This document shows, one piece after another, positions 501 through 37,223 of a stretch of DNA of 64,000 bases (positions are counted from its first letter, which is position 1; every line of letters begins with the position of its first letter). A program made the position numbers and the translations under genes. The DNA lies in NCBI GenBank assembly GCA_031553915.1, contig JAVBKT010000001.1, positions 18,891 to 82,890 on the forward strand. The letters are read 5' to 3'. Under the pieces are notes generated by a model that saw only the letters and a program-made list of their open reading frames with translations, was not told where the DNA came from and did not search any database. Source of the DNA: Bacillota bacterium (GTDB taxonomy: Bacteria; Bacillota; Dehalobacteriia; UBA4068).

Positions 501-1448
501 TTAATAACCTTCAATATAATGACCAGCTTCAACAGCGGCAATAGCGCCGTCAGCAGCTGCGGTAACAACCTGGCGCAAGCTTTTCTTGCGGGCATCGCCT
601 GCGGCAAAAACGCCAGGGATATTGGTATGCATATCATCATCGGTTATAATGTAGTTTTTCTCCATTTCCACTTTGCCTTCGAGGAAGGTGGTGTTGGGAA
701 TAAAACCAATGAAGCCGAAGACGCCAAAAGTACCGTCTTCTTCAGGAGCAAGAATTTCTCTCTCCTCACCGGTTTGGGTGTCCTTGACAGTCATAGCTTC
801 CAAAATGCCGTCGCCCTTCAGCTCAGTGATAACGCTGTTCCACATCACTTCTAATTTGGGGTTAGCAAAAGCTTTTTCCTGAATAGATTTTGCTGCGCGC
901 AGCTCATCACGGCGATGAACAACATAAACCTTGCGGGCAAATTTGGTCAGATACATAGCTTCTTCCACAGCGGAATCGCCGCCGCCAACCACATAAACTT
1001 CCATATCTTCAAAGAATGCAGCGTCGCAGGTAGCGCAGTAAGATACGCCTTTACCAACCAGTTCCTGCTCACCAGGGCAGCCAATAGGTCTGGGATAAGC
1101 GCCCGGAGCAAGAATGATGGTTTTTGCCTGGTATTCAGCATTCTTACAAATAACTTTTTTAATATCGCCTTCCAGCTGAAGATCGTCTACGGTATCGTAG
1201 ATTCTCTCTGCGCCAAAATGGTCAGCTTGATGAGCCATTCTCTCAATCAGAGAAGGGCCGCTATCGCCTTCCACGCCGCCAGGATAATTTTCGATTTCAT
1301 CGGTACTAACAATCTGGCCGCCGACTTTTGCCTTTTCGATAATCAAGGTATCAAGGCGGGCACGCCCAGCATAACTGCCTGCGGATAAACCAGCAGGGCC
1401 GGCACCAATAATAATAACGTCGTATATCTTTGTCATACTACTCCTCAT
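501..1448 (-). CDS. trxB: thioredoxin-disulfide reductase
   Basis: 315 aa. Has a GAGPAG FAD motif, a CATCD redox-active disulfide and a GGGDSA NADPH motif. Confidence 0.9.
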   Translation of the reverse strand: MRSSMTKIYDVIIIGAGPAGLSAGSYAGRARLDTLIIEKAKVGGQIVSTDEIENYPGGVEGDSGPSLIERMAHQADHFGAERIYDTVDDLQLEGDIKKVICKNAEYQAKTIILAPGAYPRPIGCPGEQELVGKGVSYCATCDAAFFEDMEVYVVGGGDSAVEEAMYLTKFARKVYVVHRRDELRAAKSIQEKAFANPKLEVMWNSVITELKGDGILEAMTVKDTQTGEEREILAPEEDGTFGVFGFIGFIPNTTFLEGKVEMEKNYIITDDDMHTNIPGVFAAGDARKKSLRQVVTAAADGAIAAVEAGHYIEGY

Positions 1449-1711: not shown

Positions 1712-3052
1712 TTATTCAATAACAACGGTCTTTGGAGCATCCATATCTTCTTGGAGAAGCTGAAGAGCAGCTTCAACATATTTGCGGCGAAGAGCTTTTT
1801 CTTTATCAGCATTTTCCAGTTTAGGATTGCCAACCGGATGCGGAACGGCATTACCAACAACGATTCTGTTAACGCCGACCATCTCAGCGATGTTCGGGAT
1901 AGCAGTGATCTGAACAGTTGGGATACCAGCTTTTTCTAAACCTCTAGCAATCGTTGACCCGCAACGAGTAGAGGTGCCTCATGTGGAGGGCAGGATAACG
2001 CCATCAATACCGCCACGAGCCACGATATCAGCGGCAATAGCCTCACCAACTTCGGCGCAACGTTTGGAAACGGTGGTGCAGGCTGGCATTGCATAATAAA
2101 CTTTATCAAGTTTACCAACTCTGCCTTCGCCAACCATATCTTCCATAACATCCTTAGGCAAAAGTCTGTCTGGATCCTGCAATACATAGTCATTGAAATA
2201 ACCGGCATGAACTACTTCATAGGCTTCGAATACTTTATCGAGGTCATATGCAGCCCAAACAAGATTACTTCTGGTAGCCATTCTGTCAGGATTGCCTTTT
2301 GGTACCAAGCCGCCGTCAGAGACAAAAGCGATAGTAGCTTTGGACATATCTTTGATAGCTTTTGGCGGTTCGATGACTTCCAGTCTTTCCGGAACAACTT
2401 CAGTGACGAATGCTTCGCCGTTCAATTTCTGAACTATTTTTTCAACAGCACGTTCTGCCATTGATTTGTCAATCTTGGCATTGCGCAGAACGTCGCGGGT
2501 GAAGTAGTTATATTCTACTGGATCAGGAATATATTCCAAGCTGATAAGTCTGGTTTCTTTGCCGGTTTTGTCTTCCAACAAATACTTAGCCAATTTAGCC
2601 ATATCAGTGACATTGGGAACCATAGTACGGCTGTTATTGGAGCCTTTGGTGATATAGACTTCTTTGCGGTACATATCCATACCAGGACCAGATTCGTCCA
2701 TGCTGCTTACGCAAGGAATGCCGAGCTCATCCTGGACTGCTTTACACATAGCGCCGCATGCTACGCTATAGCGGCCAGCTGCGAATGCCGGACCGGCAAA
2801 GAATACGTCCGGATTATATTTTTTAACAAGAGCCAAACCTTCGGCAGAGTTTTTGTCGGTATCATCACCAAAATAGTCATCGCCGCAGATAACGGTTGCA
2901 ACGATTTCAAAATCATCACCAAGCTGAGCTTGAAGAGCCACACCAGGGCCGACTGGTCCTTCCTTAACAGAAAAGCCGACTGCTGCTGCTTCTTCAGCAC
3001 CGAGCTGACCAAAGAACTGGTTCAGATAGTGCACAACTTTATATTTAGCCAT
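1712..3052 (-). CDS. grdB: glycine/sarcosine/betaine reductase component B selenoprotein subunit (GrdB/GrdF/GrdH family); TGA at 1979-1981 read as selenocysteine
   Basis: The N-terminus MAKYKVVHYLNQFFGQLGAEE is GrdB-like. The ORF track stops at a TGA. The same frame continues as U-GTSTRCGSTIARGLEKAGIPTVQITAIP...VVIE to a TAA at 1712-1714. That gives 446 aa with the conserved U...C motif of Grd protein B. Confidence 0.85.
1935..1978 (-). other. putative bacterial SECIS stem-loop immediately 3' of the grdB UGA
   Basis: On the mRNA the sequence is UGA GGC ACCUCUA CU CGUUG-CGGGU-CAACG AUUGC UAGAGGU. This is a nested hairpin with an apical loop containing GGU about 20 nt after the UGA. Confidence 0.45.
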
Positions 3053-3076: not shown

Positions 3077-4369
3077 TTAATATTCTTCCACAATAATCTT
3101 ACGGCTGCCGGTGTGGTCCATGCAACCTGCGATATTATACTGTTCAAGACCAATCACATCATCACCGGCATATTGCGGGATTGGTTCCGGATAATACAAC
3201 TTGGTTTTTTCGGTGCCGCCCAAGATTTTTTCAGCTTTGAAAGGAATCTTAGTGGTTTTTTCAAACATAGCGCCGGAAATAACGATCAAGTCGAGTTCGA
3301 TATCATTGTAGAGAATGGTATCAGCCAAAGTACCGGTAGCGGTCAATGGAGTGGTGGTGCAGCAAGTCTTAACACCAAGTCTTTCCATCGCAACACCAGT
3401 GGAAGAAATATCAGCATGTGGCATACCACCGAGGATTTTGACCAGGATAACGCCATCTGCATGCAGGATATTTTTAGCAAGGTTAGCTGCCATGGTAGCG
3501 GTTACGACACGGCCATCAAGGGTAGTGTTGGCAGGGCCGGAGATAACACCAATAAAGTTAAGGTCTTTGCCATGATGTTTGTAGAGCTCTTTAACAACGC
3601 CAAAATTCTGAATGCTATAGGAATCAAGGGCTTTCAGAGCGTTCCAACCGACAAAACCACCGTCCAAAACTTCGTTTGGATTATAAATTGTGGGGAAAGT
3701 GTTGGTAACAGGTGCGCCGTAAACAATTTTATCAGAAACAGCCATATAGTCGAACTGTGGGCTGTAGTTCTGATAGAAAAGAGCAACGCGGGGAAGCTTA
3801 GGATCTACGGTTTCGCCAACCTCAGATTCAAATACTTCGGTTTCTTTAACAGCCAGGCCTTCAGCAGCACGGGCTACGAAGACAGCAGCTTTAAAACCAG
3901 CAATCTTAACAGCATTTTCAAAATCGCGTTCTTCAACACCGTCAACTTTATAAGGAGCAACTGACAGGTTAACAAAATTAGAATATAGTGAGATGCCTGA
4001 CATCGGGCCATCACTATCAAGAACAGCGGTTTCAACCCTGTTAGTGCAAGGGTTGGATACTATGATAGCCGTACCGAGCAAGGATCTGGTTTTACCAGAG
4101 CCGGCAGTATGCATTTCGCCGAGGAAACCAGGGAAGTCCTGGTTGTCCACACCAACTTTGCAGCGAGGCTGAACTACATCAACGACGTTAACCATTCTGG
4201 CTTTATCACCAGGTTTTACGATAGTCAGGTCAACAGATTTAATTCTTTCATCCTTAAGAATCTCTGCTTCCAATTCTTTAAGGTTCAAATACAAAACGCC
4301 ATCTTTAGCGCTTGTAGCTGAGGACTCTTGAATATCTTTAATTTCAATCGAGTCAATCTCAAGTCTCAT
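3077..4369 (-). CDS. grdE: Grd reductase protein B proprotein (GrdE/GrdG/GrdI family, pyruvoyl-type alpha/beta precursor)
   Basis: 430 aa starting MRLEIDSIEIKDIQ...GVLYLNLKELEAEILKDE, similar to the GrdE proprotein. It lies directly upstream of grdB. Confidence 0.75.
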   Translation of the reverse strand: MRLEIDSIEIKDIQESSATSAKDGVLYLNLKELEAEILKDERIKSVDLTIVKPGDKARMVNVVDVVQPRCKVGVDNQDFPGFLGEMHTAGSGKTRSLLGTAIIVSNPCTNRVETAVLDSDGPMSGISLYSNFVNLSVAPYKVDGVEERDFENAVKIAGFKAAVFVARAAEGLAVKETEVFESEVGETVDPKLPRVALFYQNYSPQFDYMAVSDKIVYGAPVTNTFPTIYNPNEVLDGGFVGWNALKALDSYSIQNFGVVKELYKHHGKDLNFIGVISGPANTTLDGRVVTATMAANLAKNILHADGVILVKILGGMPHADISSTGVAMERLGVKTCCTTTPLTATGTLADTILYNDIELDLIVISGAMFEKTTKIPFKAEKILGGTEKTKLYYPEPIPQYAGDDVIGLEQYNIAGCMDHTGSRKIIVEEY

Positions 4370-10923: not shown

Positions 10924-12753
10924 TTATTTATTATAAGCGCCTTGATTTTTTTTCTTATTTCTAACGGCTGCTTCAGCAACAGCTTCCTTTTTCTGCTGGT
11001 CTATCCTGAAGCCTGGATATTTTGACCGGGGTTGATATGAGGTATGCAGCCATTCATGCGCATTATGCCCGCCCGGTTCGCCAATCAATTCTTCATATAG
11101 CTTTTTGACGATGGGGTTCTCATGCGATTTACGCAGAGGCATTTTGGCGTCCTGTTTATAAAGAGCTTTGGCGCGCAGCTCACGCAGCTCGTGGAAATTG
11201 CGCACTGACGCCGACTGCACCGGCTGTCCGCCGCCATTGACGCAGCCGCCGGGGCAAGCCATGATTTCAACCATATCATAATGGACATCGCCACTTTTAA
11301 TCTTGTTCAAAAGATTGCGGGCATTAGCCAAACCAGAGGCACAAGCCACACGCACCTTACGTCCATTGAGGTCATACTCAGCTTCTTTGATCCCGGAAAT
11401 ACCGCGTACTTCTTTGAAATCGACCTTTTCCAGCTCTTTGCCGGTAACCAGCTCCACAACAGTACGCAAGGCAGCTTCCAGAACACCGCCGGTAGCGCCA
11501 AATATCGCACCGGCACCAGTAGAAATGCCAAAGGCCGGATCAAAATCTTCATCGGGCAACTCAGTAAACATAATGCCTGCGCGCGAAATCATTCTCGCCA
11601 GCTCCCGGGTAGTGAGTGACACATCAATATCATCAAGACCATATACTGCCTGTTCATCTTTACGGTGGATCTCAAATTTTTTGGCTGTGCAAGGCATAAC
11701 ACTGACCACAAAAATATCTTTAGGGTCTATGCCCATTTTGCGCGCATAATAAGTTTTCATCATCGCCCCATACATCTGCTGTGGTGATTTGCAGGTGGAG
11801 AGGTTAGGAATAAACTCTGAGAAATATTGCTCGCAAAAACGAATCCAGCCCGGGCTGCAAGAGGTGATCAAAGGCAGGTTTTCGCCTGATTCCAAGCGTT
11901 TTAAAAATTCTGTGCCTTCTTCCACAATGGTCAGGTCAGCAGTAACGTCAACATCGAAAACACCGTCAAAGCCCAGCCGCCTCAGCGCTGCAACCATCTT
12001 GCCTTCCACATTGCTGCCAATCGGCATATCAAAGCATTCGCCTAGGGTAACACGCACAGATGGCGCAGTACCGACCACAACATGCTTGGTTGGGTCGCCC
12101 AAGGCTTGCCAAACCTTTTCCGTATCATCACGTTCTGTCAAAGCGCCGGTGGGGCAGACAGCAACACATTGTCCGCAGGAAACACAGGCAACTTCATCAA
12201 GATTGCGATCAAAAGCGCAGCTGATATGGGTAGCAAACCCGCGGTCATTGGGGCCGATCACTGCCACGCCCTGATTATTTTTACATACTGCCACGCAACG
12301 GCGGCAGAGAATGCACTTAGAATTATCGCGAATCAAATGCAGGGTTGAGTCTTCAATTTTGGGGGTTGGGTTGCCGCCAAAGCGAATATGCTCAACACCA
12401 AAATCTTTAGCCATTTTCTGCAATTCACAGTTTTGATTGCGTAGGCAAGTAAGGCAATCCTTGCGGTGGTTTGATAAGATCAGTTCCAAGGTCATTTTGC
12501 GTGATCTGGTAATTAAAGCGGTATTGGTAAAAACTTCCATACCGTCGCTGACCGGATATACGCAAGAGGCAACCGGCGCTCTGGCGCCTTTAACCTCAAC
12601 AACGCACATCCTGCAAGCGCCAATGGCATTGATTGCTTTCATATAGCATAGGGTCGGAATGTCAATTCCCGCCAAGCGCGCTGCCTCTAAGATAGTGGAC
12701 TGGGCCGGGCATTCAACCTCTATTCCGTTGATTTTTACTTTGACAGTATCCAC
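10924..12753 (-). CDS. hydA: [FeFe] hydrogenase catalytic subunit HydA (bifurcating/NADH-dependent type, N-terminal 2Fe-2S plus 4Fe-4S domains); motif L1 reads TSCSPGW
   Basis: The H-cluster motifs are L2 VMPCTAKKFE and L3 EIMACPGGCVNGGGQP. L1 is TSCSPGW, encoded ACC TCT TGC AGC CCG GGC TGG. Confidence 0.85.
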   Translation of the reverse strand: MDTVKVKINGIEVECPAQSTILEAARLAGIDIPTLCYMKAINAIGACRMCVVEVKGARAPVASCVYPVSDGMEVFTNTALITRSRKMTLELILSNHRKDCLTCLRNQNCELQKMAKDFGVEHIRFGGNPTPKIEDSTLHLIRDNSKCILCRRCVAVCKNNQGVAVIGPNDRGFATHISCAFDRNLDEVACVSCGQCVAVCPTGALTERDDTEKVWQALGDPTKHVVVGTAPSVRVTLGECFDMPIGSNVEGKMVAALRRLGFDGVFDVDVTADLTIVEEGTEFLKRLESGENLPLITSCSPGWIRFCEQYFSEFIPNLSTCKSPQQMYGAMMKTYYARKMGIDPKDIFVVSVMPCTAKKFEIHRKDEQAVYGLDDIDVSLTTRELARMISRAGIMFTELPDEDFDPAFGISTGAGAIFGATGGVLEAALRTVVELVTGKELEKVDFKEVRGISGIKEAEYDLNGRKVRVACASGLANARNLLNKIKSGDVHYDMVEIMACPGGCVNGGGQPVQSASVRNFHELRELRAKALYKQDAKMPLRKSHENPIVKKLYEELIGEPGGHNAHEWLHTSYQPRSKYPGFRIDQQKKEAVAEAAVRNKKKNQGAYNK

Positions 12754-12774
12754 GAATATTATCCTCCCCTTTAC

Positions 12775-14568
12775 TTATTGTTTAACGATAGCATTAAAGC
12801 GGCATTTTTCAAAACATGCGTTACATTTAATGCATTTATCATGGTCAATAACATGCAGCTTTTTCACTTCGCCGGAAATAGCGCTGGTGGGGCAAACACG
12901 TGAGCAAGCCGTACAACCAGTACATTTATCTTCAAGGATAAAATAATTCAGCAAAGCTTTGCAGACGCCGGATGGGCAACGATGCTCTTTTACATGAGCT
13001 TCATATTCATCGCGGAAATGACGCAAAGTAGACAGCACCGGGTTGGGCGCAGTCTGACCCAAGGCGCACAAGGAATTGGATTTGATGTGCATACACAGCT
13101 CTTCCATCAGATCAAGATCTTCCATGGTGCCGTTGCCGCTGGTGATTTTGTCCAGCAGCTGCATCAGCCGTCTGGTGCCGATACGGCAAGGAGAACATTT
13201 GCCGCAGGATTCATCAACAGTAAAATCAAGGAAATAGCGGGCAATATCAACCATGCAGTTATCTTCGTCCATGACGATCAAACCGCCGGAACCCATCATC
13301 GAACCAATAGCGATCAAGGATTCATAATCAATGGGGGTATCAATTAAACTAGCAGGGATGCAGCCGCCTGAGGGGCCGCCGGTTTGCGCTGCCTTAAACT
13401 TTTTGCCATTAGGCACGCCGCCGCCGATTTCTTCAACAATTTCCCGCAGAGTGGTTCCCATGGGGATTTCCACCAAACCGGTATTGGTAATCTTGCCGCC
13501 CAGGGCAAACACCTTTGTGCCCTTAGAGGTTGCCGTACCCATCGCCGCAAAAGCCTCTGGACCATTATTGATAATCCAGGGGATATTAGCATAAGTCTCA
13601 ACATTATTCAAGATAGTCGGCTTGCCAAAGAGACCTTTGACTGCCGGGAACGGAGGACGGGGGCGGGGCTCGCCGCGGTTGCCTTCAATAGAAGTAAGCA
13701 AAGCTGTCTCTTCGCCGCAAACAAAGGCGCCGGCGCCAAGACGGATTTCCAAATCAAAATCAAAGCCTAAATCGAAAATGTTTTTGCCCAAAAAGCCATA
13801 TTCTTTGGCTTGTTCAGTGGCTATTTTTAATCTTTCAACAGCAATAGGATACTCAGCACGGACATAAATATACCCTTGTGACGCGCCAATAGCATAACCG
13901 GCGATAGTCATCGCCTCAATAATGCTGTGCGGGTCGCCTTCCAAAACTGAGCGATCCATGAATGCGCCGGGATCACCTTCGTCGGCATTACAGCAAACAT
14001 ATTTCACCGGGTTTTTTTCCTTGGCGGCAAAAGACCACTTGGTGCCGGTGGGGAAACCAGCCCCGCCGCGTCCGCGTAATCCGGATGCGGAAATCAACTC
14101 AATGACCTCTGCGGGGGTGCGCTCGGTCAAACAGGTGGCCAGCGCTTGATATCCGTCATAGGCAATATATTCATCAATGCTTTCCGGATTGATAACACCG
14201 CAGTTACGCAAAGCGATTCTTTTCTGCTTTTTGTAAAAAGGCGTTTCATTCAGGGATTGAATTTCATGGCCAACACCCTTGTCCTGATACAGCAAACGGT
14301 GGACAATGCGTCCCTTGAGGATATGTTCTTGGACGATTTCCGCCACATCGGAAACCTGCACCATTGAATAAAAAGCCCCTTCCGGATAAACCACGACAAT
14401 GGGCCCCAATGCGCATAAGCCAAAGCAGCCAGTGGGAATCACCCTTGCTTCTTCAGCTAGTCCATATTTCTTCAGTTGAACATTAAACTCCTCGATAATC
14501 TTTGGGCTGGATGAAGATGTGCAGCCCGTGCCGCAGCAAACGAGGATATGCGAACGTGCAAAACTCAT
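12775..14568 (-). CDS. hydB: NuoF-like NADH-binding flavoprotein subunit of hydrogenase (HydB/HndC) with N-terminal 2Fe-2S and C-terminal 2x[4Fe-4S]
   Basis: 597 aa. Has GRGGAGFPTG FMN/NADH-binding motifs and C-terminal CxxCxxCxxxCP clusters. Confidence 0.85.
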   Translation of the reverse strand: MSFARSHILVCCGTGCTSSSSPKIIEEFNVQLKKYGLAEEARVIPTGCFGLCALGPIVVVYPEGAFYSMVQVSDVAEIVQEHILKGRIVHRLLYQDKGVGHEIQSLNETPFYKKQKRIALRNCGVINPESIDEYIAYDGYQALATCLTERTPAEVIELISASGLRGRGGAGFPTGTKWSFAAKEKNPVKYVCCNADEGDPGAFMDRSVLEGDPHSIIEAMTIAGYAIGASQGYIYVRAEYPIAVERLKIATEQAKEYGFLGKNIFDLGFDFDLEIRLGAGAFVCGEETALLTSIEGNRGEPRPRPPFPAVKGLFGKPTILNNVETYANIPWIINNGPEAFAAMGTATSKGTKVFALGGKITNTGLVEIPMGTTLREIVEEIGGGVPNGKKFKAAQTGGPSGGCIPASLIDTPIDYESLIAIGSMMGSGGLIVMDEDNCMVDIARYFLDFTVDESCGKCSPCRIGTRRLMQLLDKITSGNGTMEDLDLMEELCMHIKSNSLCALGQTAPNPVLSTLRHFRDEYEAHVKEHRCPSGVCKALLNYFILEDKCTGCTACSRVCPTSAISGEVKKLHVIDHDKCIKCNACFEKCRFNAIVKQ

Positions 14569-17493: not shown

Positions 17494-18819
17494 TCATTCC
17501 TCCTTTATGCCATCAGCCTCGTCTTGGGCTGACGCTCTAAATGGCGGGGGCAAATATTCATCAGCATTGCCGCTGCCTGCCATATACTGCATACGTTCTC
17601 TCATGCGGAAGATGCAATCCTCTTCTGAGGCCAGCCCCAGCACAACGTCTTCGGCCAAAGCACGGCAGGACGGCGCTCCACAGGAGCCGCAATCCAAACC
17701 GGGCAAGGCTTCGGTTAATTTGTCAATACGCATAAATTTTTCCATCGCGGCAAAGCGGTTTTCATCAAGCACCGGTACTGTTGCTTCCAGTGGTTTTTCC
17801 GGCATGCCCTCAATGATTTCGGCATCTTCATCGGTCAATTTGTTGCGGGAAACAGGCAAATATTTCATCACCCTTTTTAGTCTCGCTTTTGCCGCATAGG
17901 GGTTTTCTACAGTGAGGCAACCGCCGACACAACCTTGTGTGCAGGCATTAAGCTCCAAAAACTCCACGTCCTCCAAGGAACCGTTTTCGACATCATTCAA
18001 AATTTTAATCACATTTTCAATCCCGTCAACTGCCAGCTGATGGTCACTCAGCAGCGCCGAGGCCTCACCGCCGGAGCGCGCCCAACCTACGCCGATAATG
18101 CCGGAATGAGCCAAGCTGGGCGGGTCAGTCACCTCTTTCATGGCCGAGAGCAATTGTTTATATATTTCCTGCATCGAAAAGGCGCCGTCCACAATAGGCT
18201 CGCTTAAAGTTAAGGGGCTATGCACTGCTGTGGCTTTTGCCGGACAAGGCGTAATGAAAAAGACGCCTATTTCCTCATTCTTCAAGCCGGTTTTGGCCAT
18301 AGCCTCTTCTCGAGCATAGCGGGCCGCCACCTCCAAGGGCGCGGCATGGGGTGCGATATGATCAACCAGCTTGGGGAAACGCATACAAATCAAACGCGTC
18401 GCAGCCGGACAGGCTGAGGAAATAAAAGGCTTGGGCAAATGCCCTTCAATAATCTCCCGCCTGGTGAGGTCAGAAATCAATTCTGCGCCGCGGGATACTT
18501 CATAGACATCATCAAAACCAATTTTGAGTAAGGCGGCCAGGATAATATTAATATCGCGCAAATTATGAAACTGCCCGTACAGCGAAGGCGCTGGCAAGGC
18601 AATATTATATTTAAATTTTTCTAAATCAGTCAGCGGGTCGCATACTGCTTTTTTGGCATGATGCGGGCATACCCGAATACACTGGCCGCAGTCAATGCAA
18701 CGGTCTTCCAAAATATGCGCCTTGCCGCGGCGAACCCGTATCGCCTCTGTCGGGCATTGCTTGATACAGGTGGTGCAGCCTTTACATTTATCTTTGTCTA
18801 AGGTAACCGCATGTTGCAT
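17494..18819 (-). CDS. putative sensory [FeFe]-hydrogenase-like protein (HydS-like: 2x[4Fe-4S] ferredoxin domain, H-domain with L1 SSACPAA, C-terminal Cx2Cx4C motif)
   Basis: L1 is SSACPAA, so the proton-relay Cys position is Ala while the cubane Cys is kept. L2 is TPCPAK at the canonical 55-residue spacing from L1. L3 is ELNACTQGCVGGC. The C-terminus has DCGSCGAPSC. Confidence 0.75.
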   Translation of the reverse strand: MQHAVTLDKDKCKGCTTCIKQCPTEAIRVRRGKAHILEDRCIDCGQCIRVCPHHAKKAVCDPLTDLEKFKYNIALPAPSLYGQFHNLRDINIILAALLKIGFDDVYEVSRGAELISDLTRREIIEGHLPKPFISSACPAATRLICMRFPKLVDHIAPHAAPLEVAARYAREEAMAKTGLKNEEIGVFFITPCPAKATAVHSPLTLSEPIVDGAFSMQEIYKQLLSAMKEVTDPPSLAHSGIIGVGWARSGGEASALLSDHQLAVDGIENVIKILNDVENGSLEDVEFLELNACTQGCVGGCLTVENPYAAKARLKRVMKYLPVSRNKLTDEDAEIIEGMPEKPLEATVPVLDENRFAAMEKFMRIDKLTEALPGLDCGSCGAPSCRALAEDVVLGLASEEDCIFRMRERMQYMAGSGNADEYLPPPFRASAQDEADGIKEE

Positions 18820-36330: not shown

Positions 36331-36429
36331 ACCTTTTCATTTATAAAAATTATATAAAAATTTAGGGAAAAGCACCTATTTAATCCGCATGCATATTATT
36401 TTAATATAAAGAAACTAGGAGGTGCCAGA

Positions 36430-36843
36430 ATGAAACGGTATACTGTAGAGAGAGGCGATAGCCTTTGGAAAATAGCCCAAAACCATAATATCAGCCTCGA
36501 ATCTTTAATTGCCGCAAATCCTCAGATAGCTGATCCAAATTTAATTCAAATAGGTAGCCTGGTCAATATCCCTGAACTATGGGATCAGCCGGGATATGAT
36601 GAGAAGGATTATCGCGCCGGATTTGTCTATTGTGATGAAAGCGAAGAGCGTCCCTGCATTTATGTTGCAGATGAAGGAGAAACTTTAGAGAGCATTGGCA
36701 GACAATTGCATGTTCCCCTCTCTCAGTTAATCTATTATAACCTGCGTTATGGCAAAAGAGAACCCCTGGCTAAAGGAGCGCGTGTGGTGATTCCCGAAAA
36801 CCGCTATCCTTATCCTGAGCAACGGCCACGCCGTCCCCGTTAA
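36430..36843 (+). CDS. LysM-domain protein (only plus-strand gene in window)
   Basis: N-terminal LysM domain (YTVERGDSLWKIAQNHNISLESLIAANP). Has a good RBS (aggagg). Confidence 0.8.
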   Translation: MKRYTVERGDSLWKIAQNHNISLESLIAANPQIADPNLIQIGSLVNIPELWDQPGYDEKDYRAGFVYCDESEERPCIYVADEGETLESIGRQLHVPLSQLIYYNLRYGKREPLAKGARVVIPENRYPYPEQRPRRPR

Positions 36844-36846
36844 GCT

Positions 36847-36878
36847 AAAAACAGCCGCCTCGAGGCGGCTGTTTTATT
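36847..36878. terminator. bidirectional rho-independent terminator (acagccgcc-tcga-ggcggctgt + TTTTATT)
   Basis: Perfect 9-bp GC-rich stem with U-tracts on both strands. Confidence 0.8.
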
Positions 36879-36888
36879 GTAGTAAAAA

Positions 36889-37086
36889 TTATTCGACAGC
36901 TGCATTCAAGGCATCCATCAAAGCATCAACGTCCATACCATGGGCGGAGGCGCCATCTTCGATTGACTCGAAATGGGCGGCTGCACAGCCGATTCAGCCC
37001 ATGCCTTGCTCCATGAGAATCTGAGCAGTCTGAGGCCATTTGTCGATGATTTCCATAATGCCCATATCCCTTGTGATAGTGGTCAC
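36889..37086 (-). CDS. DUF1858-like small redox protein with in-frame TGA (candidate selenocysteine) in a UxxC motif: VTTITRDMGIMEIIDKWPQTAQILMEQGMG-U-IGCAAAHFESIEDGASAHGMDVDALMDALNAAVE
   Basis: GAGGAGG RBS, 7-nt spacer, GTG start. The TGA at 36994-36996 is in frame, and the ORF continues to a TAA at 36889. The sequence aligns with the GMxCxGCP...ESIEEAA..HGIDxDxLL..LN redox-disulfide family. Confidence 0.6.
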
Positions 37087-37190
37087 AATAATTCCTCCTC
37101 GCTAATATAAAAAATATGCCGCAATATATCTTTTGCATACTGCTTAACGACAGTTTGTCCAACTCTGAAAATAAGTATAACATAATAAAT

Positions 37191-37223
37191 AAAAAAAGCA
37201 AGGGCATAGGCCCTTGCTTTTTT
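37191..37223. terminator. bidirectional terminator downstream of gdhA (gcaagggc-ata-gcccttgc)
   Basis: 8-bp GC stem flanked by an A7 and a T6 run. Confidence 0.75.

Follow-up and report, generated by a model that had tools for sequence, protein, structure and literature searches.

The closest described system is a selenoprotein listed in two catalogues of prokaryotic selenoproteins as 'DUF1858 domain-containing protein, pfam08984, CxxU, WP_012065717.1' (PMC9312934, 2022; PMC13188914, 2026). The sequence of this exemplar (MKINRDM...KYGLHCLGUPGATME...FFEEKGN) is given in the deep-Sep supplement (PMC12013277). By the convention of the review catalogues, a different position of selenocysteine (Sec) within one domain defines a separate subfamily or 'form'. 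Neither PMC9312934 nor PMC13188914 lists a UxxC form or any other second form of DUF1858, and a search of the 2008 and 2016 papers, supplements included, found no DUF1858 selenoprotein by that name. A precedent for Sec at either position of a redox pair is provided by the Trx-like 1 selenoproteins of the GOS study (Zhang & Gladyshev 2008, PMC2398784), in which different members carry UxxC or CxxU and, as in DUF1858, the first Cys lies at the N-terminus of a helix. The likeness does not extend to the fold, as the thioredoxin fold of Trx-like 1 is unrelated to the all-helical, five-helix fold of DUF1858. The DUF1858 family is large (at least 7850 scored matches in one search), two of its structures have been solved, and it is known under two entries: Pfam DUF1858 (PF08984) and the NCBIfam 'hybrid cluster protein-associated redox disulfide domain' (TIGR03980).

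The gene described here lies in a 64,000-nt stretch of Bacillota DNA, referred to below in its entirety as the window. The gene and the signals that frame it are as follows:

36889..37086, minus strand: 65-codon DUF1858/TIGR03980 gene, TAA stop included (from the translation and full-length HMM matches)
37094..37100, minus strand: ribosome binding site (RBS) GAGGAGG, with a 7-nt spacer to the GTG (read off the sequence)
37086..37084, minus strand: GTG start codon; the N-terminus aligns with that of orthologues (MATITKDMG...)
36994..36996, minus strand: in-frame TGA, the proposed Sec codon, residue 31 in U-I-G-C (aligned with a near-invariant Cys31)
36891..36889, minus strand: TAA stop codon (read off the sequence)
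36847..36872, minus strand: intrinsic terminator, ACAGCCGCC-TCGA-GGCGGCTGT followed by a T-run (read off the sequence)
37192..37223, minus strand: gdh terminator upstream of the DUF1858 gene; a T-run follows its 14-bp stem (from the terminator scan)

The ORF coordinates, RBS, GTG, TGA and translation had been given in a preliminary description of this DNA and were correct when read off the sequence. The frame consists of 30 codons, the TGA, 34 codons and the TAA, and its translation is VTTITRDMGIMEIIDKWPQTAQILMEQGMG*IGCAAAHFESIEDGASAHGMDVDALMDALNAAVE*. With Cys put at the TGA, the product matched PF08984 over positions 1-59/59 (E 3.4e-20; 72.3 bits, curated cut-off 32.2) and TIGR03980 over positions 1-58/58 (E 6e-27; 93.4 bits, curated cut-off 44.95), in agreement with the earlier suggestion that the family fit extends over the whole length. 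The family motif is a C-x-G-C pair after G-[ML]-x; G28, G33 and C34 are present in the window protein, and C31 is replaced by the TGA. The terminator at 36872..36847 lies 17 nt past the TAA and is common to the convergent LysM/SafA gene; its stem was absent from the list produced by the consensus terminator scan. Its location after the TAA indicates that the transcript ends past the full-length ORF and not past the TGA, and the gdh terminator at 37223..37192 indicates that the DUF1858 gene is a separate, monocistronic transcription unit. Within the window, the neighbours of the gene are gdh, LysM/SafA (convergent), ylbF and perR. The 30 window ORFs scanned included no hybrid cluster protein, from which the family takes its name. 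An alternative-frame ORF of 93 aa (36926..37207), set aside as spurious in the preliminary description, has its start within the hairpin of the gdh terminator and had no record as a gene product in an exact-product look-up; the look-up returned no record for the window GDH either.

The window protein and WP_012065717.1 share the same Pfam domain, are of similar length (65 and 68 aa, respectively) and are 45% identical in an ungapped alignment. Both are predicted selenoproteins and both have a CxxC-type motif at the same place. The position of Sec differs: it is the second residue of the pair in WP_012065717.1 (GLH-C30-L-G-U33-P), whereas it is the first in the window protein (GMG-U31-I-G-C34-A), so that in the alignment U31 of the window protein stands opposite C30 and C34 opposite U33. 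The flanking signature differs as well, reading AAAHFE in the window protein and PGATME in WP_012065717.1. The gene had been put forward as a candidate new selenoprotein, of a family without a known Sec form; since DUF1858 is already catalogued (PMC9312934, PMC13188914) with WP_012065717.1 as its exemplar, this claim of novelty does not hold. The window gene varies a predicted selenoprotein family that is already known, differing from it in the position of Sec, and represents neither a new family nor a new mechanism.

A homology search yielded 78 close homologues among the matches listed, 27 of which were aligned. These homologues read GMG-C-[ILF]-G-C-AAAHFE, and 26 of the 27 have Cys where the window has TGA; the sole exception (P0076) was scrambled over the whole motif. 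When 40 members of greater diversity were aligned separately, the column was occupied by Cys in all homologues (39/39), and C31, G33 and C34 were invariant. The UGA thus falls on the first Cys of the CxxC pair, as had been proposed. Two Cys-form orthologues have the same length and gene order as the window gene and carry a Cys codon instead of TGA: P0001 (locus L009), with 86% identity to the window protein and the codon TGT, and P0010 (locus L010, GCA_024679955.1), with 78% identity and the codon TGC. The synteny common to the window, L009 and L010 is DnaE-GDH-DUF1858-LysM(convergent)-YlbF-PerR-...-M20 peptidase. Among the matches found, the closest relatives (P0001-P0009, 80-86% identity) were Cys forms in every case, and a profile search for annotated Sec forms returned no U-containing protein among the 192 proteins retrieved.

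The TGT of L009 and the TGC of L010, as codons of the closest orthologues, are what would be expected if the TGA were a sequencing or assembly error for a true TGC or TGT. The Logan assembly of run SRR23967709 (L011, 5,665 bp), which comes from the same strain and was found through the exact-product look-up of the window PerR, has the same TGA and is identical to the window over the whole DUF1858 gene. Over 5.7 kb the two sequences show 0 mismatches and one indel, a T9 versus T8 homopolymer at ~33113, which is intergenic-looking and 3.9 kb from the gene. Recurrence of the TGA in an independent assembly makes an assembly error unlikely, and we regard a miscalled Cys codon as extremely improbable. 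In the annotation of L011 no gene was called at the DUF1858 locus, where the only long ORF is the spurious one of 93 aa. The window gene is missed by gene callers, and the same failure probably hides further Sec forms of DUF1858.

Use of Sec by the host is indicated by a second gene in the window:

1712..3052, minus strand: grdB-family (selenoprotein B) gene (TIGR01918 1-345/431, E 2.5e-89, for the part before the TGA)
1981..1979, minus strand: Sec-TGA of the grdB-family gene, in frame (...GVILPST*GTSTRCG...)

The frame of the grdB-family gene runs for 88 more codons beyond the TGA, and the presence of a grdB selenoprotein gene in the window, noted previously, was confirmed (3052..1712, with the in-frame TGA in ...ST*GTSTRCG...). 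Judged from this Sec-TGA gene, the genome is one that uses Sec. The best NCBIfam match of the gene was sarcosine reductase GrdF; a GrdG/GrdE-like gene (3077-4369, minus strand) lies upstream of it and a thioredoxin reductase gene (501-1448, minus strand) downstream. Within the 64-kb window no selA, selB, selD or tRNA-Sec was seen, nor was tRNA-Sec present in any of the related loci. Four of the 44 long window ORFs end in TGA, one of the four being the grdB Sec codon. TGA otherwise serves as an ordinary, rare stop in the window, and a non-standard genetic code does not account for it. When long ORFs that end in TGA with a continuing frame were considered as additional selenoprotein candidates, grdB alone qualified. 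A sensory-type [FeFe]-hydrogenase-like ORF (17494-18819, minus strand; Fe_hyd_lg_C plus a putative Fe-S domain) also ends in TGA; this is most likely not a Sec site, the 111 codons that follow (A-MTLEGL...) probably being the next gene, starting from that Met. As to the lifestyle of the host, genes for an electron-bifurcating-type [FeFe] hydrogenase (10924-14568, minus strand; HydA-like, 609 aa, and NuoF-like, 597 aa) point to a strict anaerobe, and the SafA/LysM spore-coat gene (36430-36843) points to a spore former.

Other TGA-bearing DUF1858 genes were identified using a degenerate 48-nt pattern with TGA at the first Cys inside G-[ILMVF]-x-U-x-G-C-A-x-A-x-F-E-x-[ILMVF]-E. The scan used this one pattern, for the UxxC form, and covered 185,579 species-representative genomes plus a metagenome collection (596 Gb). 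It resulted in matches in four genomes (L001-L004, Clostridia/Bacillota MAGs) and four metagenome contigs (L005-L008), compared with ~0.02 chance matches expected in 596 Gb by our own estimate. All eight matches were in-frame DUF1858 genes with 33-36 conserved codons past the TGA and then a normal stop. An RBS was present wherever the upstream sequence was informative (L001, L002, L004, L005 and L008), and L002 and L004 share with the window the arrangement of GAGGAGG and GTG in front of their Sec-form genes. Gene contexts differed from clade to clade, with no conserved neighbourhood among the Sec forms.

Together with the window, these genes comprise four Sec lineages: the window itself, L001/L003/L005/L006/L008, L002/L004, and L007. 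The best non-self matches of the lineages were Cys forms, at 75-86% identity (~60% for L007), and the identity between different Sec lineages was about 55-60%. Because each Sec lineage is closest to Cys forms and not to other Sec lineages, these identities imply that the Cys/Sec switch at the first Cys of DUF1858 happened at least four times independently. The fourth lineage, L007 (347-394, minus strand), is a single observation on a 1128-bp metagenome contig and reads ...KYGLG*VGCAAARFENLEAG.... The Cys form closest to the L002/L004 Sec clade (P0107; L013, 391-1796) adjoins a DDE transposase gene.

Purifying selection past an in-frame TGA is a standard comparative signature of a Sec codon. 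The window lineage is represented by one strain, and selection on the post-TGA codons was computed within the other Sec clades, where dN/dS after the TGA ranged from 0.01 to 0.06. In the 33 codons past the TGA, L001 and L003 differed by 14 synonymous and 1 nonsynonymous changes (dN/dS about 0.01); the corresponding counts were 7 and 2 for L002 versus L004, and 6 and 1 for L003 versus L008. Such a nearly exclusive restriction to synonymous change indicates that the sequence past the TGA is translated in these organisms.

These data also bear on the possibility that the window TGA is a recent TGT/TGC-to-TGA nonsense mutation in this strain, with a 30-residue fragment or nothing stable being made. 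The uniformly Cys-bearing relatives P0001-P0009 are in keeping with such an event, as is the fact that TGA in the window lineage comes from one strain only, in two assemblies. Yet the stop falls on precisely the one column of 65 at which TGA occurs in three other independent, selectively maintained lineages, the host uses Sec (grdB-family gene), and neither the RBS and reading frame nor the ORF and terminator downstream show any damage; we consider a nonsense mutation unlikely. Translation past the TGA could in principle also proceed without selenium. Low-level UGA read-through is known in Firmicutes, and a near-cognate tRNA (Trp or Cys) acting at a leaky UGA would produce a full-length non-seleno protein in which, if Cys were inserted, the ancestral CxxC would be restored. 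Read-through of this kind is inefficient, however, and leaves unexplained why TGA recurs and is maintained at the redox Cys in several lineages; moreover, genuine selenoproteins are typified by Sec/Cys pairing at CxxC motifs, and DUF1858 already has an accepted Sec site at the sister position (WP_012065717.1). This route appears very improbable. The reading that we prefer, and that we consider likely, is that the window DUF1858 gene is a selenoprotein gene in which the CxxC pair has Sec in place of its first Cys. This was the core of the preliminary description, and it is well supported by the Cys column, the recurrent TGA and the post-TGA selection found elsewhere; for this strain itself, Sec insertion is a prediction drawn from comparison.

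Recoding of UGA as Sec requires consideration of a SECIS element, and candidates were evaluated against the bSECIS model, i.e. a loop of 3-9 nt with G within its first two nucleotides (often G then G/U), located 16-37 nt after the UGA, and an energy <= -7.5 kcal/mol. The preliminary description had drawn attention to a strong hairpin enclosing the UGA (AUGGGC-UGAAUC-GGCUG..CAGCC-GCCCAU). This hairpin does fold (-12.4 kcal/mol; AUGGGC/GCCCAU with GGCU-GUGC-AGCC inside, the inner stem needing a loop of 4 nt and not 2 nt), but it was rejected as a SECIS since only 7 nt separate its loop from the UGA, where the model asks for 16-37 nt. Neither was its strength exceptional (z -0.68; 41 of 200 shuffles fold equally well), and one of its arms is unpaired in the Sec form of the L001 clade (read by eye). 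A second hairpin, further downstream, fits the model:

36944..36986, minus strand: candidate SECIS hairpin, nt 11-53 after the U of the UGA
36973..36968 with 36962..36957, minus strand: upper stem of the candidate SECIS, UUUCGA/UCGAAG, 6 bp
36967..36963, minus strand: apical loop of the candidate SECIS, GUCAA, starting 26 nt after the UGA

Beneath the upper stem, the candidate (36986..36944) has an internal loop and then a lower stem, CGCC/GGCG. Its energy was -14.9 kcal/mol (z -2.1 relative to dinucleotide shuffles), and it complied with all four bSECIS criteria. Compliant hairpins were found in 7 of the 8 Sec forms versus 1 of the 5 Cys forms. The strength of the hairpin was nevertheless dropped as evidence for Sec after comparison with a synonymous-recoding null: when the window peptide was recoded synonymously using the codon usage of the window, 69% of the recodings passed the bSECIS model and 31% were as stable as the observed sequence. 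The RNA encoding GCAAAHFExIExGA appears to be inherently hairpin-prone, which renders the SECIS test uninformative. The Cys orthologue at L009 (416-616, P0001) itself passes, with an energy of -19.7 kcal/mol and a spacing of 26; two G-C pairs in the upper stem of the window hairpin correspond to G-U pairs in L009, and the L009 loop reads GACCA, as against GUCAA in the window. The best hairpin of L007 has the loop AAACC, with no G at either of its first two nucleotides, and passes only if two closing pairs are opened. For the nonsense mutation weighed above, the hairpin counts in both directions. Its strength does not exceed what encoding this peptide would produce in any case; on the other side, a model-compliant SECIS candidate with a GU loop at the correct spacing is present, although 69% of synonymous recodings also comply.

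The hairpins of the four Sec lineages were not clearly in one register. A single SECIS in a register shared by all lineages was rejected (90% of cells pair versus 85% in shuffles, with two covarying pairs), and the Sec lineages probably use different hairpins. RNAalifold returned a UGA-proximal consensus helix for the eight Sec forms, similar to the hairpin of the preliminary description, in which columns 2-12 pair with 16-26, with some covariation at pair 4-24; this helix competes with the downstream hairpin. It was rejected as a SECIS as well, its 3-nt loop lying 9 nt after the UGA and thus outside 16-37 nt. With the UGA in the A site, the helix would be expected to lie inside the mRNA channel of the ribosome and hence not to be the SelB-binding element. 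The grdB-family gene has a SECIS-like hairpin 17 nt after its own UGA (UCGUUG-CGGGU-CAACGA), which is unlike the DUF1858 candidate in both loop and stem. A search of the whole window against Rfam at the gathering threshold gave no match.

Structural context was obtained from the Cys orthologue with 86% identity, for which the AlphaFold model (pLDDT 91.5) consists of five short helices. Residue 31 directly precedes helix 3 (32-38) and forms its N-cap, and residue 34 lies in the first turn of this helix. The model superposes on the NMR structures 2K53 and 2K5E (TM 0.83; five-helix fold), both of which have the same fold and are uncharacterised. The same fold is also seen in the N-terminal ScdA_N domain of the iron-sulfur repair protein YtfE/RIC (PDB 5FNY, 5FNN; TM 0.75), and more distant homologues also match PF04405. 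The match to YtfE is weak (E 2.1, 21% identity), and the di-iron hemerythrin-like domain of YtfE is absent from the window protein.

In thiol-disulfide oxidoreductases, it is usually the first Cys of a CxxC redox motif, at a helix N-cap, that acts as the nucleophile. We propose that SelB and Sec-tRNA(Sec) decode the UGA at 36996..36994 as Sec, with the coding-sequence hairpin at 36986..36944 (loop GUCAA, 26 nt downstream) as the most plausible SelB-binding element. The product would be a 65-residue, five-helix DUF1858 protein with Sec as the first residue of the pair (G-M-G-U-I-G-C). U31 would be the more reactive nucleophile and would form a selenenylsulfide with C34, and the protein could then cycle between selenol/thiol and selenenylsulfide states as a small redox carrier or reductant. 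The modelled position of residue 31 at a helix N-cap, i.e. the usual geometry of a CxxC nucleophile, is consistent with such cycling. Sec/Cys pairing is an accepted sign that a cysteine is catalytic and redox-active. The occurrence of Sec at the first Cys in the window protein and at the second in WP_012065717.1 supports the view that the DUF1858 CxxC is a genuine redox pair as opposed to, for instance, a pair of metal ligands. If this is correct, Sec at either Cys in different lineages would mark both as redox-active and would constitute the first functional evidence for DUF1858.

More tentatively, and with somewhat less than even confidence, we suggest that UxxC constitutes an uncatalogued 'form 2' of the DUF1858 selenoproteins, with at least four origins, a coding sequence that is SECIS-ready and two Cys that are both redox-active. 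By SECIS-ready we mean that the conserved coding sequence after the CxxC, for GC-AAAHFExIExGA, would fold almost inevitably into a SECIS-like hairpin. One TGY-to-TGA change at either Cys, with the loop 26 or 17 nt downstream of it, might then be decodable as Sec immediately. The hairpin-prone nature of the RNA encoding GCAAAHFExIExGA may in this way explain the repeated conversion of Cys to Sec. The family would offer a compact system, open to testing, for the ease with which Cys codons turn into Sec codons where the downstream coding RNA is hairpin-prone.

The genomic neighbourhood offers some indication of physiological context. The perR gene is located two genes from the DUF1858 gene, and this synteny is conserved. 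A PerR/Fur-box-like consensus (TTATAATNATTATAA) had 21 matches across the window versus about 6 expected. One PerR-box-like site with 2 mismatches (36341..36355) is located just upstream of the ylbF-perR operon, and a weak site with 3 mismatches (37166..37180) is located 80-94 nt upstream of the DUF1858 start. One report places a DUF1858/ScdA-like gene among those changed in a Leptospira perRB mutant (PMC8638851). By analogy with that report, and given the PerR synteny and boxes, a role of the DUF1858 gene in oxidative stress is plausible.

Lastly, one of the genomes recovered by the pattern scan contains a further ORF with a possible relation to selenium. In L002, ~3 kb from the Sec-form DUF1858 gene, an ORF at 313-732 that starts MSKVGDLAVNYYAQGYNCCESVW... 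resembles the C_GCAxxG_C_C family (a putative assignment), a family with catalogued Sec forms of its own.
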